Positions 2,295-18,155 of a stretch of 24,964 nucleotides of DNA are shown here, piece by piece. Made by a program: the position numbers and the translations under genes. Position 1 is the stretch's first letter. Each line of letters starts with the position of its first letter. Below the pieces are notes generated by a model that made no database searches, was not told the origin of the DNA, and saw nothing but the letters and a program-made list of their open reading frames with translations. The DNA comes from an uncultured Faecalibacterium sp. (GTDB lineage Bacteria; Bacillota; Clostridia; Oscillospirales; Ruminococcaceae), in the NCBI GenBank assembly GCA_964370715.1, contig CAYJKJ010000027.1, positions 1-24,964 of the forward strand, read 5' to 3'.

Positions 2295-3761
2295 ATGGTT
2301 ATGCAAAATGTCGAATTTCTTATTTTAGTCACATTGGTTGTATTCTTGTTGTTCTCGCTTGTAGTTGTTTTTCTAACAAGATACAAAAAATGCCCCTCCG
2401 ACAAAATTTTAGTTATCTATGGTAAGGTTGGGCAAAACAAAGACGGAACAGCAAGGAGCGCAAAATGTGTCCATGGTGGCGCTTCCTTTATCGTCCCCGT
2501 TGTTCAATCCTATGCATATCTCGACCTAACCCCGCTTTCAATTCAAGTTGATTTAACAAACGCTCTTTCAAGGCAAAACATCAGAATAGACGTTCCCTCA
2601 AGGTTCACGGTTGGTATTTCGACCGAAAACGGAATTATGCAAAACGCAGCGGAACGCCTTCTAGGTCTTAGATTAAACGAAATCCAAGAACTTGCAAAAG
2701 ACATAATCTTCGGACAACTAAGGCTTATTATCGCTACGATGGATATCGAAGAGATAAACACAGACAGAGACAAGTTTTTGGCCGCCGTTTCAAACAACGT
2801 TGAAACGGAACTAAAAAAGATCGGTCTTCGCCTTATCAACGTTAACGTTACCGATATAACGGATGAATCGGGATATATTTTGGCTCTTGGTAAAGAAGCC
2901 GCCGCAAAAGCTATAAACGATGCGAAAAAATCCGTTGCTGAAAAAGAACGTGACGGTGCAATCGGTCAGGCTCTCGCTGAAAAGGATCAACGTATTCAAG
3001 TTTCAGATGCAGAATCTCTTGCAATCAAGGGCGAAAACGATGCACAGGTTATTATTTCTTTAAGCCATGCGCAACGTCGAGAAAAAGAAGCGGAAGCTTT
3101 AAGAATCGCTACATCCGCCGAAAAAATCCAAGCTGCTAAAGCTTTGGAAGATGCATATTCCGCCGAAAAAGAAGCCGAGCTTGCTCGTTTCGCAAGAGAA
3201 AAAGCCACGCTTGAAGCCGACGTTATCGTTAAAGCCGAGATTGAAAAACGCAAACTTGAGCTTGATGCAGAAGCCGTTGCGGAACAAACTCGCCGACAAG
3301 CAAAAGGGGACGCCGACGCTATATTCCTAAAGATGGAAGCGGAAGCTCGAGGAATTGAAGAAATCTTGACAAAACAAGCTGCCGGTCTCACCGAGATCGT
3401 TAACGCAGCCGGCGGAGATGCAAACGATGCGTTGAAACTAATGTTGACCGACAAGATGGAAAATCTTCTTCGCATACAAGTTGATAGCATCAAAAACATC
3501 AAATTTGATAAAGTTACCGTTTGGGATGGCGGTTCTAGCCCCGATGGCAAATCTTCAACCGCAAACTTTTTGTCGGGTCTTATGAAGAGCATACCCCCAA
3601 TGAACGATATGTTCGATATGGCGGGGATGAAGTTGCCGGAATATCTTGGAGAATCAAACAAGATCCAACAACCCTCTTCAAAACCACAGCAACTAAAACC
3701 GGCAAAACCTATTAAACCAACTACCGAAAAAACCGAAGCACTAGAACCCGGAGTTAAATAA
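2295..3761 (+). CDS. floT: Flotillin (SPFH/band-7 family), FloT/YuaG-like
   Basis: 488 aa. N-terminal TM/hairpin, an SPFH domain, then a long Ala/Glu-rich coiled-coil (EA repeats) and a Pro/Lys-rich tail. Size and architecture match FloT. Confidence 0.85.
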   Translation: MVMQNVEFLILVTLVVFLLFSLVVVFLTRYKKCPSDKILVIYGKVGQNKDGTARSAKCVHGGASFIVPVVQSYAYLDLTPLSIQVDLTNALSRQNIRIDVPSRFTVGISTENGIMQNAAERLLGLRLNEIQELAKDIIFGQLRLIIATMDIEEINTDRDKFLAAVSNNVETELKKIGLRLINVNVTDITDESGYILALGKEAAAKAINDAKKSVAEKERDGAIGQALAEKDQRIQVSDAESLAIKGENDAQVIISLSHAQRREKEAEALRIATSAEKIQAAKALEDAYSAEKEAELARFAREKATLEADVIVKAEIEKRKLELDAEAVAEQTRRQAKGDADAIFLKMEAEARGIEEILTKQAAGLTEIVNAAGGDANDALKLMLTDKMENLLRIQVDSIKNIKFDKVTVWDGGSSPDGKSSTANFLSGLMKSIPPMNDMFDMAGMKLPEYLGESNKIQQPSSKPQQLKPAKPIKPTTEKTEALEPGVK

Positions 3762-3764
3762 ACC

Positions 3765-3808
3765 AAAGGCTATGGCGAAAAGTAAAAAATTCGCCATAGC
3801 CTTTTTAG
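3765..3808. terminator. Bidirectional rho-independent terminator between convergent floT and cobC-like genes
   Basis: 15-bp perfect stem AAAGGCTATGGCGAA / TTCGCCATAGCCTTT with loop AAGTAAAAAA. TTTTTAG follows on the plus strand and TTTGGTTT on the minus strand. Confidence 0.7.
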
Positions 3809-3855
3809 TTGTTAGCGTTATTTGCTTGAAAACACTTCAAAGAGTTCTGTTTAAT

Positions 3856-4416
3856 CTAGATCTCTTCAAACTCCATCTTTTCAAGATCGACAGAATATCC
3901 TCTGCCGTTGTTTGGAATAAGTTGTTCAAACGTTTTGCCGATATCTTCAAAAAGATACATCATCGTCATGGCTATAACCGCCCCATGTGTAACCAACACC
4001 ACTGAATCATCCTGCATTGCTCTTATCTTTTCAACCCCAGTTTTAATGCGCTCTAACACCTGTTTTCCGCTCTCACCGCCGGGGCATTGTTGATTAAACG
4101 TGTCTTTCGACCAATCGACAAACAGCGAATTTGTAGCAAGGCTTTTAAAAGTTTGGTTTTCAAAATCCCCAAAATTCATCTCTTTGAAGTCTTCGATAGC
4201 CTCATGTTGTTCAACTTGATACAACGTTTCAAGAGTTTGTTTTGTCCTTGTCATACCGCTCGTGAAATATCGGTCGGCTTTTGGATAGCTGATGGTTTTT
4301 TTAAGCTCTTCAAGCTCGGTAAATCCAACGTCACACACCACAGCATCGGTTGAACCACAAAACATCTCATCGATATTTTGTTTTGTTTTTCCATGTCTTA
4401 TTAAGTATAATTTCAT
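3856..4416 (-). CDS. cobC: Histidine phosphatase family protein (phosphoglycerate-mutase-like), probably alpha-ribazole phosphatase
   Basis: 186 aa. N-terminal LIRHGKT catalytic RHG motif; THGAVI histidine near the C-terminus. It is adjacent to cobO. Confidence 0.65.
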   Translation of the reverse strand: MKLYLIRHGKTKQNIDEMFCGSTDAVVCDVGFTELEELKKTISYPKADRYFTSGMTRTKQTLETLYQVEQHEAIEDFKEMNFGDFENQTFKSLATNSLFVDWSKDTFNQQCPGGESGKQVLERIKTGVEKIRAMQDDSVVLVTHGAVIAMTMMYLFEDIGKTFEQLIPNNGRGYSVDLEKMEFEEI

Positions 4417-5099: not shown

Positions 5100-6161
5100 T
5101 TATTCAAAAATACTGTCATAATCATAGTTTAGATAAAAATCATAAACTTCGTCGAAATGTTCGACATAATTTTGTTTTGTTATCAAATGCTGTTCATTTT
5201 TCATGTATTCGAGAATATCATCATTTATTTCAGCAGAATAATGAGTTTTATCTTTATATAAATCTAAATTTGTTACAACATCATAAAGATCCATCATAGA
5301 AAAAAGCTTGATATTTTCTTGTTCAACTATAATGCTCGCTGCATATTCAATTGCTTCAAGTTGATATTCCAGTGTATTATTTTGGTTTAAGTTATCATAA
5401 TAAACCATACTGTATGGTGGTAAAAAATAATAAAATGTAATATTAGGGTTTTCATCAGCTAGTTGAACTATATTTTGTTGTATATTTTCATATATACGAG
5501 TTTTATCTTGTTCTAATATTTGCTTTATCTCAGAATTGGATTTTTCACTTCTGCTGTAACCAGACAATACCACTTCTTTAGAAAATGTATATTTTTCTTG
5601 CCATCGTCTGTAATCATCAAAATTGGTTATCGAAGCGCCTATTAGTGTATTTAAAATCGTTCTTCCCGACCCGTTTGCTAGGGTGTGTTTATTTAAAAGA
5701 TAGTTAATATCGTTAAGGTGATTTTCATCATATAAATAATCCGGATAGGTACTGTATCGCAAAGAATCTTTTTCAGCATTTATAGCTGATATATCTAATG
5801 AACGTACAATCATTGAAATGTCAGAATTGTAAAAAATCGCCCTACTTAAATGACTGTTTATCTCTTTATAACTCCCCCCAGCAAAACATGTCTTGATGCT
5901 TTTTACATCAAACAAATCATCCAACTGGCTCGCTTTAAAATTCTGGGCCATTGATGTGCCTGTTATTATTGCATCATATTCAAAATATCTTGCTATTCCA
6001 TTGTTTTGATACCGTTCCATATGCAACAAATACCCCAATTGATCAATTGGTGATCTATATAAAAAATATGGATCTATAATAAAATTTACCGTTATTATAA
6101 AAACCATTGCCAAATAAAACAGCAACACCACTAACACTACAAATTTTTTGCTAGTTACCAT
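5100..6161 (-). CDS. DltD-like / SGNH-like extracytoplasmic partner of the MBOAT acyltransferase
   Basis: Start MVTSKKFVVLVVLL (ATG 6159-6161) with a GAGAAAGG RBS. One N-terminal TM, then a ~320-aa extracytoplasmic domain with an AIITGTSMAQNF motif. It lies 17 nt downstream of the MBOAT stop, as dltB-dltD and algI-algJ pairs do. The ORF track's longer start at 6251 overlaps the MBOAT gene. Confidence 0.55.
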   Translation of the reverse strand: MVTSKKFVVLVVLLFYLAMVFIITVNFIIDPYFLYRSPIDQLGYLLHMERYQNNGIARYFEYDAIITGTSMAQNFKASQLDDLFDVKSIKTCFAGGSYKEINSHLSRAIFYNSDISMIVRSLDISAINAEKDSLRYSTYPDYLYDENHLNDINYLLNKHTLANGSGRTILNTLIGASITNFDDYRRWQEKYTFSKEVVLSGYSRSEKSNSEIKQILEQDKTRIYENIQQNIVQLADENPNITFYYFLPPYSMVYYDNLNQNNTLEYQLEAIEYAASIIVEQENIKLFSMMDLYDVVTNLDLYKDKTHYSAEINDDILEYMKNEQHLITKQNYVEHFDEVYDFYLNYDYDSIFE

Positions 6162-6178
6162 ATTAAAACCTTTCTCAA

Positions 6179-7684
6179 CTAAAAATTGAAATATATAAAT
6201 GTCGAAACCCCTGCAAAAGAAGATACCACCCAAGTTAAAATAAAAATACATTTAATAGCCTCAATATAAGTTGGCTTAAAATCTTGCAACTTTTCATTTG
6301 TATTTTTCATAGCTACTGTGCATAAAAGAGTTACAATAAATAATGTTATAAACAAAATCAATCCTGTAATAGGTATAGCTGTAACGTTTAAAATGGCATA
6401 TTCTGTAACACTTTCCGGTGCATTAATTAAGTCTTTATTTATCGACTCAAAGTTAAAAGAAAATATCTTTCTCAAAAACTCCCCTGCTGAAGTTAGCGAC
6501 TCAGCTCTAAACAACACCCACGTTAAGTTGACAAATAAAAATGTAATAACCCAATTTATAGCTTTCGGTATTTTGTTAACAACAGGGGATAATGTTCTTG
6601 TTAAAATGCTAAACAAACCATGTAAAATGCCCCATAAAATAAACGTCCAGTTTGCTCCATGCCAAATTCCGCTAACTAAAAATACTATAAAAATGTTTCG
6701 ATAAAGTTTAGCTTTCCCTACCCTATTTCCACCTAATGGTATGTAAATATATTTAGTAAAAAACCTTGTTAATGTTATATGCCATCTTTCCCAAAACTCT
6801 ATTATCGTAGTAGCTTTGTATGGTGAATTAAAATTCATCGGTAGTTTTATGTTAAACATATAACCTACACCGGTAGCTATATCACAATATCCGCTAAAAT
6901 CAAAGTATATTTGAATCGTATAAGCTAACATTACAAATATCGCATCGGTGCTACTCATTGCACTTATGTTGTCATGACCCCAGTTTGCAAACAAAGCAAA
7001 TGTATCGGCTATCAAAACTTTTTTTGCAAGACCTAAAGAAAACGCATATAATCCTTTGGAAAAATTTCCGTAATCAAACTGCTTTTTTTTGGTATCTGCA
7101 AATTGGGGAACAACTTCGCTATGTAAAACTATAGGTCCCGCTACTAATTGCGGAAAAAAAGTTACAAACAATGAATAATCAAGAAATTTGTATTTCGGAA
7201 CTGCTTTTTTATAACAGTCTATGACATATGACAGCTGCTGAAACGTAAAGAAACTGATACCTAGCGGCAACAATATTTTTTCCAAAAATATATCTGTTCC
7301 AAAAACCATGTTAATGTTATCAATGAAAAAGCTGAAATATTTAAAATAAAATAATAGCCCAATATTAAATAATAGCCCTAAACTTAAAAAAACTTTAGAA
7401 TAGTTTTTATTATCAGATTTCAGCATACTATTTCCCAAACAGTAGTTTACTAATATACTTGCCAGCATTAAAAAGATGTATGTAAAATTAAAATAGCCAT
7501 AAAACCAAAATGACATCGCAACTAAAAAGCTTTTAGACAGCTCATATTTTTTAAAATGGTTTAAAAGATAATATCCTGTCAATGTAGCGGGCAAAAATAA
7601 CAATACAAAAATATACGAATTAAATAACACTTTTCCACCACCTATAAAATCAAAAATGCCGTTCTCTATTATTATGTGTTTCAA
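6179..7684 (-). CDS. MBOAT family membrane-bound O-acyltransferase (AlgI/DltB-like)
   Basis: 501 aa, polytopic. Conserved FFPQLVAGPIV, WHITLTRFF...YIPLGGNR and SGIWHGANWTFILWG motifs, including the catalytic His region. The track's first codon is TTG (7682-7684) and no in-frame ATG lies upstream. Confidence 0.85.
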   Translation of the reverse strand: MKHIIIENGIFDFIGGGKVLFNSYIFVLLFLPATLTGYYLLNHFKKYELSKSFLVAMSFWFYGYFNFTYIFLMLASILVNYCLGNSMLKSDNKNYSKVFLSLGLLFNIGLLFYFKYFSFFIDNINMVFGTDIFLEKILLPLGISFFTFQQLSYVIDCYKKAVPKYKFLDYSLFVTFFPQLVAGPIVLHSEVVPQFADTKKKQFDYGNFSKGLYAFSLGLAKKVLIADTFALFANWGHDNISAMSSTDAIFVMLAYTIQIYFDFSGYCDIATGVGYMFNIKLPMNFNSPYKATTIIEFWERWHITLTRFFTKYIYIPLGGNRVGKAKLYRNIFIVFLVSGIWHGANWTFILWGILHGLFSILTRTLSPVVNKIPKAINWVITFLFVNLTWVLFRAESLTSAGEFLRKIFSFNFESINKDLINAPESVTEYAILNVTAIPITGLILFITLFIVTLLCTVAMKNTNEKLQDFKPTYIEAIKCIFILTWVVSSFAGVSTFIYFNF

Positions 7685-7705
7685 CCATTCTAAATCTCAG
7701 TTCAT

Positions 7706-7843: not shown

Positions 7844-9061
7844 CTACTCCTCATAATACCTATTAAACTTCTCTCCCGTCGCTTCGGGGTATAAACTGCT
7901 GTTCCACACGTGATCAGTTAAACCCATATATTCATCCGTCACGTTGAAAAAGTTGTGGAAAACAGCTGTATCACCTGCAGCGTAAGGGTCGTTCCACGTT
8001 AGGTCTACGTTATACCATTCATCTTCAAGTTTAACCTTGTTCCAAGCGTGTGGTTCGCCGCCTTCAACCGCAACCGTTCCATCCACCGACACGCAGTCTA
8101 TCCCCAAAAGATCCATAAACAGTTGGAACGTCGAGGTATAGCCATAACATATCGCTACTTCATTATACAAAAGCCCATAAGGGTTTTCGTTGTCGGGGTC
8201 GGGGGTTGCGTTGGGGGATTGGCTGTTTGCTTGTTCATCGTATGAAGCGTTCATGATAATATAGTCATGTACCGCACGTTCCTTTTGATAATCGCTCATA
8301 TCGGGGGTTGTTATCTCTTGGATAATCGTTAAACACCGTTCAAGAATAAGATAGTTTTTTTGCGTGAGGTTGCTCATGTTCCCTGTTTCAAAAGCCATAA
8401 TAATCGAATCGCTATCATAAATGTCATCTTCGCTTACCGGTTGGGTCTCATCAAACAACGGTGCATCCTGTTTCGGCGTTTGTAGTATATCGCTCGACAG
8501 TCTCAAAGATCTTTCTTCTTGCTTCGGAATAGGGGGTGGATTGTTTGAAAAACTATCGGCAAACGCTTTGTTCATAGCATCGTTATCGCTCGATATCATC
8601 AACGCAACATAGCTTTTGTTTCTCGCTATAATCCCTTGTTCAGCTAGAAATGCTTGTTCCGGAATATATCCTATAAAGCTATTTGTTCTGCGTTCTATAT
8701 AGCTTTCGAGTTGCTGTTCTGCAAACTCTGCTTTTTGTTCATCTTCAAACAAAAGCACCGTCACTTCGTTTGCTAGCGCTCCGTTTGGATAGCAGATTAT
8801 CCCGTCGATTAGCCCCTCTGTCGTCATCTGATAGTATCGGTCGAAATACTGTTCAAAGTTTTCGTCGTTTGGCGTTAGCGGAAACATCTCCGGCATATCG
8901 CTTTGAGTTGCTAGCATTACCTCCGCTAGTTCGGTTGGGGTGTATAAAGTTTCGGTTGTCTGTTCCGTCGTGCTACATCCGGTTAAAAAACCTAAAAATA
9001 TTACTAAACCTAGTATTAAGCATTTGCAATTTGTATTCAATCCTATTTTTATTAACCTCAT
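7844..9061 (-). CDS. Lipoprotein with an N-terminal DUF4358-like domain and a C-terminal transglutaminase-like cysteine-protease domain
   Basis: Signal peptide MRLIKIGLNTNCKCLILGLVIFLGFLTGC with an LTGC lipobox; the track's extra MTKGINTKL start extends to 9088. C-terminal core CYGYTSTFQLFMDLLGIDCVSVDG...HAWNKV...WYNVDLTWND matches the Cys-His-Asp transglutaminase-like fold. Confidence 0.7.
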   Translation of the reverse strand: MRLIKIGLNTNCKCLILGLVIFLGFLTGCSTTEQTTETLYTPTELAEVMLATQSDMPEMFPLTPNDENFEQYFDRYYQMTTEGLIDGIICYPNGALANEVTVLLFEDEQKAEFAEQQLESYIERRTNSFIGYIPEQAFLAEQGIIARNKSYVALMISSDNDAMNKAFADSFSNNPPPIPKQEERSLRLSSDILQTPKQDAPLFDETQPVSEDDIYDSDSIIMAFETGNMSNLTQKNYLILERCLTIIQEITTPDMSDYQKERAVHDYIIMNASYDEQANSQSPNATPDPDNENPYGLLYNEVAICYGYTSTFQLFMDLLGIDCVSVDGTVAVEGGEPHAWNKVKLEDEWYNVDLTWNDPYAAGDTAVFHNFFNVTDEYMGLTDHVWNSSLYPEATGEKFNRYYEE

Positions 9062-9236
9062 CAATTTTGTATTTATTCCTTTCGTCAAATGTTTTTTTAA
9101 CTAAAAACAGCATTTACTAATACGCAAAAAGTTGAAACAATCTATTTTCAGTCATAACTAACTTTATTAAACAAATATATTGTATAATAACACAAACTAT
9201 ACTTTTTTTCTACAAAAAAATTTTAACAAATTTTAG

Positions 9237-9350: not shown

Positions 9351-10565
9351 ATGAAGGAATTTAAAAAATCAACACGACTTAAAAATGTGCTATATGACAT
9401 AAGAGGTCCCGTTCTCGACGAAGCTATGAGGATGGAAAAAAACGGCGAGAAAATAATCAAACTCAACATCGGAAACCCGGCGCCGTTTGGGCTTAAGGCG
9501 AAGGATGCGTTGAACCAAGAAATGATAGCAAAGCTTTCGTTATCGGAGGGCTATTCCGAATCAAGGGGAATACTTCCTGCAAGAAACGCTATATGCGACT
9601 ACTACAAAAAAATCGGCATCTCAAACGCTTCTCCCGATTACATCTACACAGGAAATGGCGTGAGCGAGCTTATCCAGCTTTCTATGCAAGCTTTGTTAAA
9701 CCAAGGGGACGAAATCCTTGTTCCCTCCCCAAACTACCCTCTTTGGACTGCTTCGGTCTCGCTAACGGGAGCCACAGCGGTTCACTATATCTGCGACGAA
9801 CAAAGCGACTGGTTGCCCGACATCAACGACATCAAGAGCAAGATAACCGACAACACAAAGGGAATAGTTTTAATCAACCCCAACAACCCAACAGGGGCGG
9901 TCTATCCGAAACAACTGCTTTTGGATATCGCAAAACTTGCCAAAGAAAAAGAGATTATTGTTTTTTCTGATGAAATCTATGACCGCCTTTTGTTCGACGA
10001 TAATGTCCACTATCCCATTGCCGCCCTTGACCCGGAACTTCTTTGCGTAACATTTGGCGGTCTTTCAAAGTCCCACAACATAGCCGGATATCGACTAGGT
10101 TGGATGATGCTTTCGGGTCCTTTACAACAGATGTCGGGGTATATTGAGGGCATTAATATGCTGTCGTCTATGCGCCTTTGTAGCAACGTTCCGGCTCAAC
10201 AGCTCGCCGAATTTGCTTTAAGCGAATATGGCAAACCAAACCCGCTTATGCTTCCCGGCGGTAGGATTTATGAGCAACGAAATCTTATCTACAAAGCGAT
10301 GAACGATATCCCGGGAGTTTCTGCCGTTAAACCAAAAGGAGCGTTTTATATATTCCCAAAACTCGATATAAAACGGTTTAACATAACGAGCGACGAAAAA
10401 TTTGTGTTCGATTTCCTTAAAGAAAAAAAGATACTATTAGTTCATGGCGGAGGATTCCACCACAGCGAACCAGACCATTTCAGAATCGTGTTTTTGCCTG
10501 AAGTTGAGATGCTTGAAAAAGCTTCAAGCGCTCTTGATGACTTTTTGGCAACATACAAACAGTAG
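9351..10565 (+). CDS. alaA: Class I/II aminotransferase, alanine transaminase AlaA/YfbQ type
   Basis: 404 aa. N-terminus KSTRLKNVLYDIRGPVLDEAMRMEKNGEKIIKLNIGNPAPFGL is diagnostic for the AlaA family. The fold-type I region SKSHNIAGYRLGW carries the PLP lysine. Confidence 0.85.
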   Translation: MKEFKKSTRLKNVLYDIRGPVLDEAMRMEKNGEKIIKLNIGNPAPFGLKAKDALNQEMIAKLSLSEGYSESRGILPARNAICDYYKKIGISNASPDYIYTGNGVSELIQLSMQALLNQGDEILVPSPNYPLWTASVSLTGATAVHYICDEQSDWLPDINDIKSKITDNTKGIVLINPNNPTGAVYPKQLLLDIAKLAKEKEIIVFSDEIYDRLLFDDNVHYPIAALDPELLCVTFGGLSKSHNIAGYRLGWMMLSGPLQQMSGYIEGINMLSSMRLCSNVPAQQLAEFALSEYGKPNPLMLPGGRIYEQRNLIYKAMNDIPGVSAVKPKGAFYIFPKLDIKRFNITSDEKFVFDFLKEKKILLVHGGGFHHSEPDHFRIVFLPEVEMLEKASSALDDFLATYKQ

Positions 10566-10586
10566 ACCAAACAAGCTAACGCTAAA

Positions 10587-10632
10587 AACAGGTTGCGACA
10601 AAATTGATTTGTCACAACCTGTTTGTTTTTTT
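10587..10632. terminator. Bidirectional rho-independent terminator between convergent alaA and the CNNM gene
   Basis: AACAGGTTGCGACAAA-TTGA-TTTGTCACAACCTGTT, a 16-bp stem with one mismatch. TGTTTTTTT on the plus strand and a T-run on the minus strand. Confidence 0.7.
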
Positions 10633-10642
10633 GCAAAATATA

Positions 10643-11986
10643 TTATTCTTCCGATTTTTTCTCGGATTTTCCGTTGTCGGATTTTTTTGCAAGCACCTTC
10701 GAAATTCTATGGTCGTCAACCTCCAGAACGGTGAAAGTATATCCCGATTCTTCGATAGACGGCCGTTCCCCTTCTTCCGGTATACGGCGCAAACGATCGG
10801 TCAAAAGCCCCGCTATCGTTTCATAATCTCCAACATTCGAGAACACAATCTCAAGATCGTCTTCAACCTCTTCAAGGTCTGCTGTTCCGGCGATGATATA
10901 TTTATCTTCGGCAACTTTTTGGATCTCTTCCGGCTCGTCGTCGAATTCATCTTGGATGTTTCCAACGATGCTTTCGATTAGGTCTTCAACCGTTACAATT
11001 CCTGCCGTTCCGCCATATTCATCAACAACGACGGCTATCTGGCTACGTTTAACCCTCAGCTGCTCAAAAACCTCGTTACAAGGCGCAGTTTCCGGAACAA
11101 AGATTACATCTCTTATGCAATCATCAATTTTAAACTCACGTTTACTTTTAAAGATATATTTCAAAAGGTCTTTAGCAACAACTATACCTTTTATCTCGTC
11201 TATTCCGTCCTCGCCACAAACGGGAATTCTTGAATGTCCCGTCTCGTTTGTTAAGTTGACTATCTCTTCTAGCGATGTGTCGATGCTGATCCATTCAACT
11301 TCGGTTCTATGCGTCATAACATCGTTGACCGAAAGGTTGTTAAATTCAAAGATATTGTGGATCATCTCTTGCTCTGCCGGAGCTATCGTTCCATCCTGTT
11401 CGCCCTCGTCGATCATAAGGCGAATTTCCTCTTCGGTGACCTCTCGGTCTTTGTCGTTAGGGTCGATTCCTATGAGGCGCAAAACACCATTTGTCGAATG
11501 AGTTAAAAGCCAAATAAAAGGAGTTGAAACGATCGAGATATATTTTAGCGGCTGTGCTGCCATCTTTGAAATCGCTTCGGGATTTTTCATAGCAAGACGT
11601 TTTGGAACAAGTTCTCCGAAAACCAGCGTTGCATATGAAAGAAGCAACGTTATAACCACCAGCGAAACCGCTCTCACGGTGTCGGCCGGTATGCTCGTGT
11701 CTTTAAACCAATAAACGAAATATTCCGAAAAACTATCCGCCGCAAATGCGGAAGAGAGAAACCCCGAAAGGGTGACCCCCACTTGAATAGTTGCCAAAAA
11801 CTTTCCCGGTTCTTCGATAAGTCTAAACAAAATTTTTGAAGTTTTGTTTCCGCTTAGAGCATCTTTTTTAAGTTTTGCATCGTTTAAAGTTATAACTGCA
11901 ATTTCGCTCATTGAAAAAAAGCCGTTTATCAAAATGAGGACTAATAATAGAATAATACTACCTAATATAGTTTCGCCGTCAGGCAT
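10643..11986 (-). CDS. CNNM/CorC/TlyC-family transporter (DUF21 TM domain + CBS pair + CorC_HlyC domain)
   Basis: 447 aa from MPDGETILG (ATG 11984-11986, GGAG RBS). Four N-terminal TM helices, a tandem CBS region and a C-terminal transporter-associated domain. The track's 12007 start includes the RBS. Confidence 0.85.
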   Translation of the reverse strand: MPDGETILGSIILLLVLILINGFFSMSEIAVITLNDAKLKKDALSGNKTSKILFRLIEEPGKFLATIQVGVTLSGFLSSAFAADSFSEYFVYWFKDTSIPADTVRAVSLVVITLLLSYATLVFGELVPKRLAMKNPEAISKMAAQPLKYISIVSTPFIWLLTHSTNGVLRLIGIDPNDKDREVTEEEIRLMIDEGEQDGTIAPAEQEMIHNIFEFNNLSVNDVMTHRTEVEWISIDTSLEEIVNLTNETGHSRIPVCGEDGIDEIKGIVVAKDLLKYIFKSKREFKIDDCIRDVIFVPETAPCNEVFEQLRVKRSQIAVVVDEYGGTAGIVTVEDLIESIVGNIQDEFDDEPEEIQKVAEDKYIIAGTADLEEVEDDLEIVFSNVGDYETIAGLLTDRLRRIPEEGERPSIEESGYTFTVLEVDDHRISKVLAKKSDNGKSEKKSEE

Positions 11987-12022
11987 CTTTTTCTCCTTTT
12001 CAAACACATATGTATTTTTTTA

Positions 12023-12688
12023 TTAATAATCAAGTGCATTGCTGCCTTTGAGTATTTCAATTGCACTGCTCGTTCCGAGCCTGTCGCATCCTAGCTCAAC
12101 AAAAGCATTTATATCATCAATGTTTTTCATGCCGCCTGCCGCTTTAACTTTAACGTTTTCTCCGATATGTTGTTTAAACAGTTTAACATCTTCGACAGTA
12201 GCTCCCGCCGTTCCAAAACCGGTTGACGTCTTGATAAAATCAGCGCCGGCTTTTGTCACTATCTCGCAAAGTTTAATCTTCTCTGTTTCGGAAAGATAAC
12301 ACGTTTCGATTATAACCTTTAATATATTATCTCCGCAAGCTTTTTTTATCGCTTCTATCTCCAAAAGAACTTTATCAAACTCTTCATTTTTAACGTCGCC
12401 GATGTTGATAACCATATCAATCTCATCAGCTCCGTTTGAAATAGCGTCTTTTGTTTCAAAAACTTTCGTTTCGGTTGTCGAATATCCTAACGGAAAACCA
12501 ATAACTGTGCAGATAGTTAGTTTGTCGCCAAAGTTTTCTTTAACCCGTTTAACATAGGAAGCCGGTATACAAACCGACGCCGTGTTATATTTAATCGCTT
12601 GTTCGCAAAGTTGTTTAATTGAATCAAAATCTGCAAAGGCTTTGAGCTGTGTATGGTCAACTCTTTTGAGTATGTTGCTGTTTTCCAT
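12023..12688 (-). CDS. deoC: Deoxyribose-phosphate aldolase
   Basis: VDHTQLK, VIGFPLG and the FIKTSTGF Schiff-base lysine motif. ATG at 12686-12688 with an AAGGAG RBS 7 nt upstream. Confidence 0.9.
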   Translation of the reverse strand: MENSNILKRVDHTQLKAFADFDSIKQLCEQAIKYNTASVCIPASYVKRVKENFGDKLTICTVIGFPLGYSTTETKVFETKDAISNGADEIDMVINIGDVKNEEFDKVLLEIEAIKKACGDNILKVIIETCYLSETEKIKLCEIVTKAGADFIKTSTGFGTAGATVEDVKLFKQHIGENVKVKAAGGMKNIDDINAFVELGCDRLGTSSAIEILKGSNALDY

Positions 12689-12744
12689 CAAAAGCGCTCC
12701 TTAATATTTTTATAAACTTACTCGCATATTTAAAATCATTTTAA

Positions 12745-14325
12745 TTATGCGGCATCTTGGGTTTCGGGGGTCGTTGTCGCCTCGGGAGAAACTGTTGCTC
12801 CCGAAACTTTGGTGAATCTCATATCATAATACGAAGTCTGTGTGCTGTCGTAGTATTCCCTTAATACCATCTCGGTGTCGTTTCTTGTGACAAAAATTCT
12901 GTCGTAGTAGTAGTTGTTTTCGCCCTCTGTATAGTGTAGCACCAATCGTTTGTTTTCAACGTCGACGCTAACTGTTCCGCTTATCGTCGATTCGGTCTGC
13001 CAACTTCCGGTTTCATATCCTTTTGGATCGCTGTCGTTTGGAACAAGATATTTAAGGGTGAACGTTCCATCTTCGCCAAATGTTAGGTATTCAACCATAT
13101 TTTGTCCGCTGTTTTCGGTATAGGTGAATTCATCCGACAACCAAGAACCGATAATATATTCCGAATACGGATTATCTTGATCCTCTGTCGAACCGCCCAA
13201 AAGCGGAGACACAACGAAAATAGCCGCAAGAACACCAAGAACCGCTACTCCAACAAATATAAGCACCGTTATTATGATAGATTTAACACTCTTTGGTTTA
13301 TCATCATCGCTATCGTCGTGGCCTCCTTGTTGAGGCATTCCGGCAGTAGGTGTTTCTTGTTCTCCCTTTCCAAAAAGTTTCTTTTTGGTTTTTTTGGTCT
13401 TTTCCTCTGCTTCAAGCTCCAAAATCCCTGTCATTCCCATATCTGCCCTCATGTTTGGTATAGTTTGGGTTTGGGAATTTCTGTTTTGATTACGGTCTTG
13501 AATAGGTTTGAGAGGTGTCGGTTTTAATGGGCGCATATCCCCTCTGTTTTGCCCTTGCATATTATACCCCGGTTGTTGTTGCTGTTGTGGGTGGGGCTGT
13601 TGGGGATGGCCTTGGAACTGCTGAAGCTGTTGATAGCCCTCCGGTCTGCCATGTTGTTGCATCTGCCCACCCGGCATCTGTTGCGGCCTTTGAGCCGGTT
13701 GCCCTTGCATCTGCTGGGGTCTTTCGTATTGAGGTGTGTTTGGAATCTGTTGTCCATTAGGCATCTTGGATTGAGCCGGTGGTCGTTGCTGTTGAACATT
13801 GCCCATCTGTTGCCCTGAAGGTTGTCCTTGATGCGGTATATGTTGTGTTGGTTGTATAGCGCTTTGTTGTGGGTTTTGGGGTTGTCCTTGCTGTTGCATC
13901 GGTTGTCTTTGAGGTTGAACCTGTTGAACAGGTTGTTGCACCGATTGCTGTTGCTGAATTGGTTGCTGTGGTTGTTGTGGCTGAGCCGGTTGTTGCTGAA
14001 CAGGTTGAGCCGCCTGAGGCGGTTGCTGAGCCTGTATAGGTTGCCCTTGTGGTGGCATCTGTTGGTAGCTATAGTTTTGTTGCGGCGCCATATTGTTTGG
14101 GTTTTGGGGTTGTCCGTATGCCCCCATATTTATGTTTTGTTTTGAACCAAATTCTCTTGTCGTTTGAACTTCGTTTTGATTAAACTGGTTTTGAACAGCA
14201 TCATTTTGCGCTGAAACGTCGTTCGCCTGATGATTTTGGCCGCCACTCTTGATGTGACCGCATATCGGGCAAACAACCTCATTTTCCGCCATTGGGCATC
14301 CGCATTTTTCACATTCGTAATTCAT
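12745..14325 (-). CDS. Zinc-ribbon membrane protein with a ~260-aa Gln/Pro-rich disordered linker, one TM helix and a C-terminal GxW-motif beta-rich ectodomain (lipocalin-like)
   Basis: N-terminal YECEKCGCPM...CPICGH (CxxC...CxxC). Extreme Q/P low complexity, then a Lys-rich stretch and TM SIIITVLIFVGVAVLGVLAAIFVV. Ectodomain has GSW...GSW motifs. The start is translationally coupled: its RBS overlaps the stop of the upstream DUF2752 gene. Confidence 0.75.
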   Translation of the reverse strand: MNYECEKCGCPMAENEVVCPICGHIKSGGQNHQANDVSAQNDAVQNQFNQNEVQTTREFGSKQNINMGAYGQPQNPNNMAPQQNYSYQQMPPQGQPIQAQQPPQAAQPVQQQPAQPQQPQQPIQQQQSVQQPVQQVQPQRQPMQQQGQPQNPQQSAIQPTQHIPHQGQPSGQQMGNVQQQRPPAQSKMPNGQQIPNTPQYERPQQMQGQPAQRPQQMPGGQMQQHGRPEGYQQLQQFQGHPQQPHPQQQQQPGYNMQGQNRGDMRPLKPTPLKPIQDRNQNRNSQTQTIPNMRADMGMTGILELEAEEKTKKTKKKLFGKGEQETPTAGMPQQGGHDDSDDDKPKSVKSIIITVLIFVGVAVLGVLAAIFVVSPLLGGSTEDQDNPYSEYIIGSWLSDEFTYTENSGQNMVEYLTFGEDGTFTLKYLVPNDSDPKGYETGSWQTESTISGTVSVDVENKRLVLHYTEGENNYYYDRIFVTRNDTEMVLREYYDSTQTSYYDMRFTKVSGATVSPEATTTPETQDAA

Positions 14326-14337
14326 ATTAATACAACC

Positions 14338-14712
14338 TCACATTAATATATTCAAAATATTTTTTATAAGTAAAGACGTTACCAAACAAACACACATAAT
14401 CCCTGCCGGTATTAAAAAATTCAACGACCTATCGATCTTTTTTATGAAACAATAGGTATTAAACACAACCAAAACAACAAGCCAAACCGCTGTTAAAAGT
14501 GGCAACGGATTTTGAAGAAACGATTCAACAAACCTAAAATCGAACAGCAGACCTACCGCAGTTGTTATCCCACAAGTTGGGCAAAAAATACCCAAAGCAG
14601 ATCTTATCACACATGGAAAAGAAAAGTTTCCAACCTTTACATAAAGACCGCAAACAACAAATGACCCCAAAAGAACCAACGAAATTATAAGACGTTTTTT
14701 TGTTTGTATCAT
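14338..14712 (-). CDS. DUF2752 family membrane protein
   Basis: 124 aa, 4 TM. Conserved CPxCGxT motif (FCPTCGITTA) typical of DUF2752. Confidence 0.6.
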   Translation of the reverse strand: MIQTKKRLIISLVLLGSFVVCGLYVKVGNFSFPCVIRSALGIFCPTCGITTAVGLLFDFRFVESFLQNPLPLLTAVWLVVLVVFNTYCFIKKIDRSLNFLIPAGIMCVCLVTSLLIKNILNILM

Positions 14713-14731
14713 TTTTTAAACTGCAATATAA

Positions 14732-15235
14732 TTATGACCTAAACATTGTCGCAAAATTGTCGAAATAAAATGAATCAAATCCGCCAAACGAATCATATAA
14801 AAACGGATCAACTGCAAACGAAACCATCGTTTCAAACGCTGCATAGGTTAGCGAGAAAACGATAGCTACAAAAACACCAAACAAAATTCCGATGATCCCC
14901 AAAATTAAACCGATAATCGCAAAATCGCTTTTTTGGCTTTTTCGCCCTAGAATACCAAAGACAACTGCCGGAATACCAAACAAAAATCCAGTCACAGCGG
15001 TAAAGCAAGATACTATCGAAAGCCCCCCTAAAACGAGCGAAACTATGCCCATCCAGTTTCTTTTGCTGTCTCTTATGTCAACCGGTTGAAACGGAGTTTC
15101 TGTCGCACTGCTTTGAGTTTGGCTTTGCGTGTCGTTTTGCATCATTGGTTCAGCTTGAACTTCAAGTTGCTTTGCGCAGTATGGGCAAACATTAAAATCA
15201 GATTGAACTTCCCTGAAACAGCCGTTGCATTTCAT
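14732..15235 (-). CDS. Zinc-ribbon + DUF4190 membrane protein
   Basis: MKCNGCFREV...CPYCAK zinc ribbon, a Q/T/S-rich linker, then a two-TM DUF4190-type hairpin (GIPAVVFGILG...IIGLILGIIGILFG). GGGAGAAG RBS. Confidence 0.7.
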   Translation of the reverse strand: MKCNGCFREVQSDFNVCPYCAKQLEVQAEPMMQNDTQSQTQSSATETPFQPVDIRDSKRNWMGIVSLVLGGLSIVSCFTAVTGFLFGIPAVVFGILGRKSQKSDFAIIGLILGIIGILFGVFVAIVFSLTYAAFETMVSFAVDPFLYDSFGGFDSFYFDNFATMFRS

Positions 15236-15295
15236 AATAGTATCTTCTCCCTATATTAAATAAATATCAAATTTAAGTTCTTATATACTATATTA

Positions 15296-15324
15296 TTTTA
15301 TTATATTAACAATATAATGTCAAA
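15296..15324 (-). promoter_or_regulatory. Putative promoter of the Zn-ribbon/DUF2752 operon
   Basis: Minus sense: TTGACA (plus 15319-15324), 17-nt spacer, TAAAAT. A 244-nt AT-rich intergenic lies upstream of the 15235 start. Confidence 0.4.
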
Positions 15325-15479
15325 TAAATTAAATAAAAATCTTTAAAACACCGATAGCTCAAATATGCCTTGCGAAATTTTGCATAATAATCTATGAACA
15401 AACCACATCATAGTTTATCAATTAAAGCTTTTAAAACATAAAATATATCTACCTTGAAAATCTTGATTTTTTAACAATC

Positions 15480-16253
15480 TTAATTGTTTATTGTTCCTTT
15501 AAAAACAATGTTAGGTTTTCCCGAAAGAAACGCCGTTTTTTGTCGGTCAAACGTTATCGAAAGCGTTCCCCCTTGCATCTCAATAGGGATAATCTGTTTT
15601 TGCACAACATTGTTAATCACCGCGCTGTATGCAGTCGCAACCGCTCCCGTTCCGCATGACAACGTTTTGTTGCTCCCTTTTTCAAAAACCAGCGCTAAAA
15701 CATGGCCGTTTCTCACAGTGGCTATCTCTATATTAACGTTGTTTGCAAGCTGTTTATGTTTTTTTGTTTTTTGATATAGGCTATAAAGAAGTTGTTCCGA
15801 TATCTTATCGCAAAAAAACACAAGATGTTTGTTCCCAACATCGATAAGATCCGCCTTAAACCCACCAACGTTAAATTCATCAATTTTTTTTGGCATCCCC
15901 ATCTCGATACTAAACAAAAAGCTTTTATCTTTCAACGAAGCAACTTTAGCTAGCTTTAATCCGGCATTTGTTTCGAGGCTATAATAGCTACCATTGGTTT
16001 GGTGGTGAAGAAGTTTTGCAACCGACAATGCACCGTTCCCACACATAGCCCCTATCGTTCCGTCGCTGTTAAACATCTGCATTCTAGCATCCGCAACATC
16101 GCTTTTAGAAACTTTAATAAATCCATCTGAACCTATTCCAAAGTTTCTTTCACAAAGAGCTTTTACCCTGTCGGGCGAAACCTCAACATCTTTATTCTTG
16201 CAATCAACAACAATATAATCATTTCCAAACGATTCGATTTTTATAAAATCCAT
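15480..16253 (-). CDS. dapF: Diaminopimelate epimerase
   Basis: Active-site cysteines in MCGNG and SCGTG; N-terminal FIKIESFGNDYIVVD. ATG MDFIKIE preferred because of a GAGGTGGGGG RBS. The track start at 16265 is GTG, inside that RBS. Confidence 0.85.
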   Translation of the reverse strand: MDFIKIESFGNDYIVVDCKNKDVEVSPDRVKALCERNFGIGSDGFIKVSKSDVADARMQMFNSDGTIGAMCGNGALSVAKLLHHQTNGSYYSLETNAGLKLAKVASLKDKSFLFSIEMGMPKKIDEFNVGGFKADLIDVGNKHLVFFCDKISEQLLYSLYQKTKKHKQLANNVNIEIATVRNGHVLALVFEKGSNKTLSCGTGAVATAYSAVINNVVQKQIIPIEMQGGTLSITFDRQKTAFLSGKPNIVFKGTINN

Positions 16254-16362
16254 CTTATCCCCCACCTCACATTTTGTTTACCCATACTATGCAGTTTTTG
16301 TTTTTGTGGTTAATGTGTTATAATAAAAAAATCGAAAGTATTTTTTTATTCGAGGAAAATTA

Positions 16363-17592
16363 ATGGAACAACAAACAACACAAAAAGCCGTTGTCCTAGC
16401 TTGCGACAACGAACAATATGATATCGAAAGTTCTCTTAGCGAACTTAGCGCACTTTGCGAGACGGCGGGCGCTGAAGTTATCGCCGAAGTGGTTCAAAAA
16501 AGACAGGCGAAAGACCCTAAAACATATCTTGGAAAAGGGAAGATCGACGAAGCTAGGATTATCTGCCTTGGAGAAGGGGCGGATCTTGTTATCGTAGACG
16601 ACGAGATTTCCGCATCTCAAAAACGATCGATCGAAGAGATAGTCGACGTTCCTGTCATCGACAGAACAACGCTAATCCTAGATATATTCGCTCGCCACGC
16701 CACGACGGCGGAGGGCAATCTTCAAGTTGAACTTGCTCAACAACGCTATCGTCTTGTACATCTAGCCGGCCAAGGATTGATGCTTTCTCGCCTAGGTGGA
16801 GGAATTGGAACAAGAGGACCCGGCGAAACCAAGCTCGAAACCGATAAGCGCCACATTCGCCGACGCATTAACACCCTCGAAAAACGCTTGGAGGAACTTG
16901 AAAAGCGCCGAGACCTCACGAGAAAGCGCCGAAAAAAAGAGAACGTCCCGATAGTCTCGCTTGTTGGCTACACAAACGTTGGGAAATCAAGCCTTTTAAA
17001 CACGCTAACCGGAGCGGAGGTTTTAGCGCAAGACAAACTTTTCGCAACGCTTGACACCACGACACGAAAACTTTCGGTTGGCGACCTTCAACAGATAGTG
17101 TTGGTAGATACCGTTGGCTTTGTTAGCCGTCTACCCCATGAACTTGTCGAAGCTTTTAAATCAACCCTTGAAGAGGTTGCCCAAAGCGATTTAATATTGC
17201 TGGTTGCAGACGGCTCTTCAAGAGATTTTTCGTTGCAACTTGAGGTTGCTAAAAAAACAATTGAGCAGCTGGATTGCGGACAGATACCGACAATAACCGT
17301 ATTTAATAAATGCGACCTGCTCGACACCCATTCTGCCCTGCCGGGTATCGCCGTTTCCGCTAAAACAGGTTTTGGCATACAAACGCTTATACAAGAGATA
17401 TCAAAAAATCTTGCAGAAAGGGTTGTTCGAATAACGGCGCTTATTCCGTTTGACAAACTTTCTCTAATGCCCATAATCCGAGAACATGGCAATGTTTTAG
17501 AGGAGGAATATCGAGAGGACGGGGTGTTCATAAGAGCAACTATCGACCGCTCGGTTTATAACAGAATTCAAGATTATGTAACCGGGGTTTAA
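16363..17592 (+). CDS. hflX: GTPase HflX
   Basis: 409 aa. HflX N-domain and a G domain (GYTNVGKSSLLN, DTVGF, NKCD). GAGGAAAA RBS. Confidence 0.9.
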   Translation: MEQQTTQKAVVLACDNEQYDIESSLSELSALCETAGAEVIAEVVQKRQAKDPKTYLGKGKIDEARIICLGEGADLVIVDDEISASQKRSIEEIVDVPVIDRTTLILDIFARHATTAEGNLQVELAQQRYRLVHLAGQGLMLSRLGGGIGTRGPGETKLETDKRHIRRRINTLEKRLEELEKRRDLTRKRRKKENVPIVSLVGYTNVGKSSLLNTLTGAEVLAQDKLFATLDTTTRKLSVGDLQQIVLVDTVGFVSRLPHELVEAFKSTLEEVAQSDLILLVADGSSRDFSLQLEVAKKTIEQLDCGQIPTITVFNKCDLLDTHSALPGIAVSAKTGFGIQTLIQEISKNLAERVVRITALIPFDKLSLMPIIREHGNVLEEEYREDGVFIRATIDRSVYNRIQDYVTGV

Positions 17593-17729: not shown

Positions 17730-18155
17730 ATGAAATTTTGTACAAGCTGCGGAAGCCAAATGGAAGACAATGCAAATTTCTGCCCCGATTGTGGCGCAAA
17801 AGAAGAGCAAGCAACCGTCAATCAACCCGAAAGCAATCCACAACCCAGATATAACCAACAGCCAGGTTATAGCAAACAACCAACCTACAACCAGCAATCA
17901 ACCTATAACCAGCAACCAACCTATAATCAACAGTTGTCCGAGAATTTTGAAAAAAAACTGGGCGGTGTTTTGGCTCTTAGTATCGTTGCTATTCTTTTCA
18001 GCTTTTTGTTTGGTATAATTTCATTAGTTTTCTACTTCCAAGCAAAAAAAGCCGTCAACGAACAAGAGTATGCTAAAGCCGTTAAAATTTCAAGAATCAC
18101 AGGAATCATTGGTATTGTTATCGGAACATTGGTATTTATAATCAATATAGTGTAG
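17730..18155 (+). CDS. Zinc-ribbon protein with a Q/N/Y/P oligopeptide-repeat linker and a DUF4190-like two-TM C-terminus
   Basis: CTSCGSQM...CPDCGAK zinc ribbon. PRYNQQPGYSKQPTYNQQSTYNQQPTYNQQ repeats. TM hairpin LALSIVAILFSFLFGIISLVFYF...ITGIIGIVIGTLVFIINIV. AGAGGG RBS. Confidence 0.7.
   Translation: MKFCTSCGSQMEDNANFCPDCGAKEEQATVNQPESNPQPRYNQQPGYSKQPTYNQQSTYNQQPTYNQQLSENFEKKLGGVLALSIVAILFSFLFGIISLVFYFQAKKAVNEQEYAKAVKISRITGIIGIVIGTLVFIINIV

Follow-up and report, generated by a model that had tools for sequence, protein, structure and literature searches.

DUF2752, DUF4190, DUF4234, DUF975 and the bacterial CD225 group are common membrane protein families without an assigned function. The literature that we searched contained no paper mentioning DUF2752, one paper that mentions DUF4190 in passing and none on the gene neighbourhoods of bacterial CD225 proteins, the group from which the vertebrate IFITM antiviral proteins are thought to be derived. 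Here we analyzed a stretch of 24,964 nucleotides from an uncultured Faecalibacterium sp. (the complete contig CAYJKJ010000027.1 of assembly GCA_964370715.1; the whole stretch is referred to as the window), which carries three closely spaced genes for membrane proteins, named A, B and C:

14732..15235, minus strand: gene A, whole open reading frame (ORF), 167 aa, from the ORF list
14338..14712, minus strand: gene B, whole ORF, 124 aa, from the ORF list
12745..14325, minus strand: gene C, whole ORF, 526 aa, from the ORF list

In its first two genes the locus resembles the DUF2752/DUF4190 pairs of other genomes. The product of gene B scores above the cut-off of the DUF2752 family (PF10825) and carries the motif C-x9-CPxCG, and A, with a zinc ribbon and a hairpin, stands in the commonest arrangement of such pairs (31/58). 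The difference lies in the third gene, C, which follows 12 nt after B, an arrangement seen in only one other genome. We suggest that A-B exemplifies a two-gene membrane module that occurs widely, and that A-B-C is a composite operon rather than a conserved three-part machine; taken as a whole, this is our best explanation, and we regard it as about evenly poised between right and wrong.

The initial annotation, made from the sequence, had described three minus-strand ORFs separated by 19 and 12 nt. Both the ORF list and the sequence agree with it (gap A-B at 14713-14731, gap B-C at 14326-14337), and the ribosome-binding site (RBS) of gene C, GAGG, indeed overlaps the TGA stop codon of gene B (atgTGAGGttgtattaatATG). 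The start of gene A is preceded by GGAG. Unlike A and C, gene B has no recognisable Shine-Dalgarno sequence in its upstream region 14713-14731 (gcagtttaaaaaATG), and its translation may be coupled to that of A or may simply be low.

The A protein begins with a cytoplasmic zinc ribbon, followed by a polar linker, a DUF4190-like transmembrane (TM) hairpin with a third TM segment (aa 62-137) and an aromatic and acidic C-terminal tail. A single Cys is found at the hairpin turn.

15176-15229, minus strand: zinc ribbon of A, aa 3-20, C3-x2-C6...C17-x2-C20, cytoplasmic

The top Pfam match of A was DUF4190 (PF13828; E 2.3e-5, 24.5 bits, profile positions 1-60 of 62), a family that is annotated on nine of ten database homologues of A (P0002-P0010) and is also matched, at E 1.1e-5, by the orthologue of A in locus L006 (43% identity to window A). 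The DZR and zinc-ribbon matches of A in Pfam are sub-threshold; the two zinc ribbons that had been proposed are seen as CxxC...CxxC at the N-termini of both A and C. In exact-sequence look-ups, the A and B proteins were not on record.

For gene B, the family assignment and the CPxCG motif given in the initial annotation are backed by a clear Pfam score (PF10825, 42.3 bits, gathering score 27, E 7.7e-11, profile positions 1-48 of 49). The L006 orthologue is 46% identical to window B.

14569-14613, minus strand: Cys motif of B, C34-x9-C44-P-T-C47-G, after the first hydrophobic helix

CPxCG is a classic rubredoxin/zinc-ribbon knuckle. In an alignment of 40 DUF2752 sequences including B, residues C34, C44, P45, C47 and G48 are invariant, and T40, G41, Y43, G46, L56 and N118 are nearly so. 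The family usually has T-R after CG-x, whereas B has T-T, with Thr replacing the usual Arg. The family-averaged hydropathy shows three hydrophobic peaks (aa 9-23, 69-83 and 101-115), while the Cys region (aa 27-68) is too little hydrophobic for a TM helix and is not rich in Lys/Arg. These basic residues cluster N-terminally (3.3 in 12.6 residues) and in the loop that joins helices 2 and 3 (2 in 7). By the positive-inside rule, this Lys/Arg profile suggests that DUF2752 proteins probably have their N-terminus inside and the Cys knuckle on the outer face of the membrane. A single-sequence model of B reached a predicted local distance difference test (pLDDT) score of 55 and was used for helix positions only. 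A profile search of the PDB with the DUF2752 alignment of B found no solved relatives, and a word-indexed homology search gave no matches for B or for the ectodomain of C.

We examined the gene neighbourhoods of both families. Among three long contigs with homologues of A, two have a DUF2752 gene adjoining the DUF4190 gene, divergently in L001 and convergently, with overlapping 3' ends, in L004. A wider scan with a three-sequence DUF2752 alignment as query, over one genome per GTDB species, yielded 80 loci that were kept. Besides Lachnospiraceae, they come from Paenibacillus, Oscillospiraceae, Muribaculaceae, Thermoguttaceae, Lentisphaeria, Verrucomicrobiales and Hydrogenedentota. A hidden Markov model (HMM) built from A and its homologues found a match within 300 nt of the DUF2752 ORF in 34/80 loci and only two matches more than 2 kb away, across 508 kb of flanking sequence. 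When the two immediate neighbours of DUF2752 in each locus were scanned with Pfam (E<=1e-3), the upstream neighbours comprised DUF4234 (19), DUF975 (9), DUF4190 (8), DUF6693 (7), CD225 (5) and zinc ribbons (8), and the downstream neighbours CD225 (6), DUF4190 (5) and zinc ribbons (8). Such partner proteins often carry a zinc ribbon at the N-terminus or a tail rich in Q/N/P, and A and B themselves form such a pair, with DUF2752 immediately adjacent to a gene of the DUF4190/DUF4234/CD225/DUF975 type.

Clustering of the neighbours placed a partner in 58/80 loci. Beyond these, five loci have a match within 300 nt that was missed by the crude gene caller and four have one within 2 kb, so that about 58-67 of the 80 DUF2752 genes stand near a gene for a small hairpin membrane protein. 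The share of partner-like genes falls steeply with distance: it is 43.5% at gene rank 1, 10% and 5% at ranks 2 and 3, and about 1% (0-2%) at rank 4 and beyond. Partner-type neighbours occur in Lachnospiraceae, Paenibacillus, Muribaculaceae, Thermoguttaceae, Lentisphaeria and Hydrogenedentota; none was seen in Verrucomicrobiales. The neighbourhood of DUF4190 and DUF2752 named in the initial annotation thus holds in many species and several phyla and is broader than had been stated, as DUF4234, CD225 and DUF975 take part in it too.

The 58 partners lie in four orientations: 31 upstream on the same strand (as in the window), 16 convergent, eight downstream on the same strand and three divergent. 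Convergent pairs cannot be co-transcribed, yet their adjacency is maintained. That the genes stay together whichever way they are turned speaks for a functional link and not for hitch-hiking within an operon. This bears on one alternative, namely that the three small membrane genes have nothing to do with each other and share a transcript by chance. In its favour, only two related genomes have the triad, and gene B lacks a Shine-Dalgarno sequence. Against it stands, for A and B, the adjacency of DUF2752 and its partner in 58-67 of 80 species, with four orientations, a steep rank decay and a frequency far above background. We regard the absence of any link as very unlikely.

Several arrangements recur among these loci. 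In many Lachnospiraceae (L011, L012, L015, L016, L019, L025 and L045; at ~6000-7300), DUF2752 and its partner are convergent, with 3' ends that overlap or nearly touch, and two tandem DUF4190-like copies are often present. In four other Lachnospiraceae loci (L020, L024, L033 and L040; ~3400-4200 and 6400-7700), a DUF4190-like gene lies ~1.7-2 kb upstream of DUF2752, which is followed by a gene for cofactor-independent phosphoglycerate mutase.

Membrane cysteines are abundant in the partner proteins. A CC dipeptide, often extended to CCC or CCCC where the hairpin turns, is present in 31/67 partner proteins compared with 46/490 other ORFs of up to 300 aa from the same loci (L006-L085). The motif TCG[IL][YF] of DUF4234 occurs in 20/67 partners. 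As the most likely reading of the pairing, DUF2752 and its hairpin partner, here B and A, would assemble as one hetero-oligomeric membrane complex, with a shared metal, thiol (disulfide) or acyl chemistry that would involve the partner's Cys-rich hairpin together with the DUF2752 knuckle. The idea of a Cys chemistry is speculative because the excess of Cys in the hairpin is modest (at least one Cys in 85% of hairpins versus 65% of other membrane segments), and we relied on the contrast in CC dipeptides instead. A more specific version is that DUF2752 proteins may be dedicated Cys-dependent partners of dispanin-like hairpins (DUF4190, CD225/IFITM-like, DUF4234 and DUF975), serving as an assembly factor, a subunit of a shared metal site or a thiol- or acyl-modifying enzyme whose knuckle acts on the hairpin turn, and that the pair is wired here to a lipocalin-like receptor, C. 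We consider this version unlikely.

The CD225/IFITM proteins ('dispanins') are likewise small proteins with two hydrophobic segments and membrane-proximal Cys or CC residues, serve as alternative partners of DUF2752 and have one representative in the window (17730-18155). The differences are that A matches DUF4190 and not CD225, that its hairpin turn has a single Cys and that S-acylation is not established in these bacteria. In IFITM3, S-palmitoylated cysteines are important (PMC4488726). The IFITMs of vertebrates prevent viral fusion, and homologues from mycobacteria show partial activity in human cells (PMC4488726). Together with the CD225/IFITM-type proteins among the DUF2752 partners and the much faster evolution of A, B and C relative to their flanks, this raises the possibility that a CD225/IFITM-related hairpin protein acts with DUF2752 on membrane properties, as a module of anti-phage defence or abortive infection. 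However, none of the three proteins matched a defence-protein HMM in PADLOC at E<=0.1, the locus is syntenic amid housekeeping genes rather than part of a defence island, and no nuclease, NTPase or other effector lies nearby, so that a role in immunity appears very improbable.

The CD225-like gene in the window, which we call D, encodes a paralogue-like protein of the class that pairs with DUF2752 elsewhere. It lies just downstream of hflX:

17730..18155, plus strand: gene D, 141 aa, with a zinc ribbon, QQPTYNQQ-type repeats and a CD225-like (IFITM-type) hairpin

In Pfam, the D protein scores above the gathering score for Zn_Ribbon_1 (32.4 bits against 25) and below it for CD225 (25.1 bits against 27.1). 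It also gives a weak match to the DUF4190-like HMM built from A and its homologues.

To the A-B pair, the window adds gene C, whose product has a modular layout:

14260..14313, minus strand: zinc ribbon of C, aa 5-22, CEKCGCPMAENEVVCPIC, C5-x2-C8...C19-x2-C22
13291..14238, minus strand: disordered cytoplasmic linker of C, aa ~30-345, 29% Q and 14% P, from composition
13201..13278, minus strand: TM helix of C, aa ~350-375; the AlphaFold2 helix covers residues 2-24 in a query of 175 aa, equal to residues 353-375 of the protein
12802..13188, minus strand: extracytoplasmic lipocalin-like beta-barrel of C, aa ~380-508, with the conserved motifs GxWxS, VE.L, DG.W and LREYY...YYD

The zinc ribbon matches Zn_Ribbon_1 below threshold (E 0.048). 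The linker terminates with the juxtamembrane motif GILELE and with a basic patch, whose position upstream of the TM helix fits an orientation with the N-terminus inside. The linker probably also accounts for a composition anomaly at 13001-14000, where the GC content is 0.46 (0.30-0.45 in the other 1-kb windows) and the AT skew is -0.33, as the Gln/Pro-rich stretch is encoded there on the minus strand; long spurious plus-strand ORFs overlap the same region.

An exhaustive HMMER search with residues 345-526 of C against 1.84 billion cluster representatives returned 63 relatives, 51 of them at E<1e-10. In every relative the matched domain lies at the extreme C-terminus, preceded by an N-terminal region of ~20-570 residues. 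The domain spans ~130 residues with invariant W44, S46, E61, W91, G99, R138, E139 and D150 (numbering of alignment A4). A CxxC...CxxC N-terminus is present in 50/58 full-length members, and 21/58 have the strict pattern G-h-h-E-x-x-h, the equivalent of GILELE in the window, within 60 aa before the TM helix. The linkers are mostly acidic and, among the sequences examined, are Q/P-rich only in window C and its L006 orthologue. With its zinc ribbon in the cytoplasm and a conserved motif next to the membrane, C may have a partner inside the cell. We regard these proteins as a small, unnamed, clade-restricted family of surface proteins from gut and rumen Clostridia.

With the family alignment as input, AlphaFold2 confidently predicted one TM helix and, after it, eight long beta strands (pLDDT 87.9, predicted template modelling score 0.73) that form the eight-stranded antiparallel meander barrel of the lipocalin/calycin fold. 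Structural comparison gave the following matches to the C barrel, with their scores:

Bacteroides lipocalin-like 2mhd, 9.1
ToxS periplasmic domain, 8u2f_B, 9.0
Bacteroides lipocalin-like 3hty, 8.9
Bacteroides lipocalin-like 4qrl, 8.8
VtrC, 5kev_B, 8.1
NlpE, 7.1

Classical lipocalins match the barrel structurally as well. The lipocalin-like ectodomain of the initial annotation is therefore borne out at the level of the fold but not of the sequence, where Pfam gave no lipocalin family at E<=1 and NlpE_N (E 0.08) as the sole related match. Apart from this and the sub-threshold zinc ribbons, C matched no Pfam or NCBIfam family, and a PDB profile search with the C alignment found nothing relevant.

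The Bacteroides domains and the N-terminal domain of NlpE belong to lipoproteins or secreted proteins whose function is unknown or different and are 13-18% identical to C; the combination of zinc ribbon, linker and TM helix is peculiar to the C family. ToxS and VtrC are membrane-anchored lipocalin-like sensors of bile salts in co-component systems (PMC9214523), and C is similarly anchored. These proteins, however, lack the ~350-aa cytoplasmic part of C with its zinc ribbon and disordered linker, the host of C belongs to a Gram-positive-type Clostridia lineage and sequence similarity was not detected. By comparison with these sensors, which bind bile salts, the C protein would most likely serve at the cell surface to bind a small hydrophobic ligand.

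Whether C might control transcription, either as an anti-sigma kind of sensor or as a co-component of the ToxS/VtrC kind, was judged from its neighbours. Co-component systems have an adjacent, often overlapping gene for a membrane-bound winged helix-turn-helix (wHTH) transcription factor (PMC9214523). A Pfam scan of ~25 ORFs across the 25 kb found no DNA-binding regulator, and C was rejected as a ToxR/ToxS-VtrA/VtrC co-component because the defining adjacent ToxR/VtrA-type wHTH membrane regulator is missing. Anti-sigma factors of the ZAS type have an N-terminal HxxxCxxC motif and an adjacent gene for an extracytoplasmic function (ECF) sigma factor. A and C have C4 ribbons (CxxC...CxxC) instead, and no sigma factor was found among the window ORFs scanned, so that membership in this group was rejected on both counts. 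We consider a transcription-controlling role of C very unlikely.

To place the three genes in relation to each other, we scanned the DUF2752 loci with an HMM of the C ectodomain. It matched in the window and in L006 only, a related uncultured Oscillospiraceae metagenome-assembled genome; the C family is absent from 79/80 DUF2752 loci. L006 has the gene order hflX-dapF-A-B-C-deoC-CNNM, as in the window, so that the two probably share a lineage. The flanking proteins of the two loci are 84% (HflX), 84% (DeoC), 83% (CNNM) and 69% (DapF) identical, compared with 52% for C, 46% for B and 43% for A (window 12745-15235 versus L006 3012-5574). Judged by these identities, the membrane trio is kept but diverging much faster than its flanking genes, and because A, B and C are intact in L006, in the same order and with equally tight spacing, they are real genes and not chance ORFs.

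A metagenome scan with the C family returned one locus, and the contexts of further members were obtained from individual look-ups, in which several contigs were too short to tell anything:

L086/L087: MBL hydrolase, C, deoC
L089: hflX, MBL, A-like, RidA, C, deoC
L088: MBL, A-like, C
L095: acyl-CoA-synthetase-like, C, deoC
L093 and L092: C, then a SIR2 deacetylase gene; more divergent, with ddl and murI upstream in L093

DUF2752 is absent from every one of these other C-family loci. A is absent from L086, L093 and L095, and an A-like gene accompanies C in a sub-clade (L088, L089). The steadiest neighbour of C is deoC, which it directly precedes in five loci with gaps of 2-64 nt (L086 5563-7559; L089 5001-6973; L095 181-1120; L006 3904-6304; window 12023-14325). 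With DeoC and HflX identities of ~60%, this arrangement may be synteny kept by descent and not a sign of functional coupling. In passing, no hairpin Cys was seen in the A-like proteins of L088 and L089, which have no DUF2752 neighbour, while the window and L006 proteins do have Cys there; the sample is far too small for an interpretation.

The initial annotation described a conserved membrane module to which a third protein is added here. The triad itself is not a conserved unit, as C is missing from 79 of the 80 DUF2752 loci and B stands beside C only in the window and L006; the conserved unit is the A-B pair or, more broadly, DUF2752 together with a hairpin protein. A rival reading is an obligate three-subunit signalling complex, in which the C barrel would sense a ligand and signal to the zinc ribbons of C and A. 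The close packing of the genes, including the overlap between the stop codon of B and the RBS of C, speaks for it, as do the same order and spacing in L006 despite protein identities of 43-52%, the A-like gene beside C in L088 and near C in L089, and the conservation of juxtamembrane motif and zinc ribbon in the C family. Set against these are the absence of the C family from nearly all DUF2752 loci, the absence of DUF2752 from L086, L088, L089, L093 and L095 and of A from L086, L093 and L095, and the lack of an output partner (DNA-binding protein, sigma factor or kinase) nearby in the window. We therefore consider an obligate complex of all three proteins unlikely.

Returning to the composite operon with a conserved A-B pair, several points weigh against it. 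The 80 loci were selected by pattern from three sequences, and they are not phylogenetically independent because Lachnospiraceae dominate among them. No recognisable partner lies near 13-22 of the 80 DUF2752 genes, and the partner 'supercluster' was built from hydrophobic proteins by single-linkage BLAST; the totals obtained with Pfam are similar. The 24.5 bits of A are below the DUF4190 gathering score of 35, so that the DUF4190 label of the initial annotation stands as the top match and by the annotation of nine of ten homologues and falls short of the Pfam cut-off. Because the model of B is of low confidence, the proposed topology was read from hydropathy and the positive-inside rule. Finally, the synteny of C with deoC or with A may reflect inherited gene order in a narrow clade and not functional coupling.

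The genes that surround the family members also suggested a role in the cell envelope, in which the proteins would be accessory membrane proteins in the homeostasis of peptidoglycan or surface polymers. TcaA-type proteins of Firmicutes have a cytoplasmic N-terminal C4 zinc ribbon, a single TM helix and an extracellular domain, a layout of ribbon, TM helix and ectodomain that recurs here. The contexts include dapF (window and L006), a Mur ligase gene (L086) and ddl with murI (L093), and the fast divergence of A, B and C is often seen in surface-exposed proteins. The sole computed signal is a faint match of the A ribbon to TcaA in NCBIfam (NF053815; 13.2 bits against a cut-off of 550, E 0.028). 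It covers the zinc ribbon only, and no homology was seen between the ectodomains; membership in the TcaA family was rejected. As the contexts are, moreover, mixed and of a housekeeping kind (hflX, deoC, SIR2 and tRNA synthetases), we regard such an envelope function as quite unlikely.

We also searched the window for signals of transcription. The best sigma-70-like match in a consensus scan of 10400-16500 lies ~60 nt upstream of gene A, and deoC is the next gene after C:

15295..15323, minus strand: promoter-like site TTGACA-17-TAAAAT, 11/12 match to the consensus
12023..12691, minus strand: deoC (deoxyribose-phosphate aldolase), Pfam DeoC, 53 nt downstream of C

A simple scan found no minus-strand terminator-like site from A to C, nor between the stop codon of C and deoC; the two minus-strand sites that it returned are both within the CNNM ORF (11736-11773). 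These simple scans are consistent with the operon having its own promoter and no visible terminator, as had been noted initially. A single promoter would thus probably drive A-B-C and read on into deoC and the CNNM gene. Because Rfam gave no RNA family across the whole window, no known riboswitch or leader is present in the 244-nt region upstream of A.

Elsewhere in the window, an MBOAT-family O-acyltransferase gene (6179-7684, minus strand) overlaps a 383-aa ORF (5100-6251) without a Pfam match. The two may form a pair for surface-polymer acylation. A transglutaminase-like/DUF4358 gene lies near the MBOAT gene, at 7844-9088.

Taken together, the locus combines families that are known but little explored in a variant arrangement and adds to them a lipocalin-like family that is small and unnamed. 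What it offers is a clear pairing open to testing, not a mechanism that has been demonstrated, and the current understanding is so far unchanged. The C family is a small, so far unnamed group in which a lipocalin-like barrel is tethered to a cytoplasmic zinc ribbon, and this barrel could bind bile acids or other lipids. That DUF2752 is found beside a hairpin protein in most of the sampled genomes and in any orientation points to a two-protein unit accessible to experiment, for instance in Paenibacillus species that can be cultured, of which the scan returned genomes of named strains, with the conserved cysteines as the first residues to mutate. If DUF2752 is indeed the partner of the hairpin proteins, this would provide a first functional handle on bacterial IFITM-type proteins.

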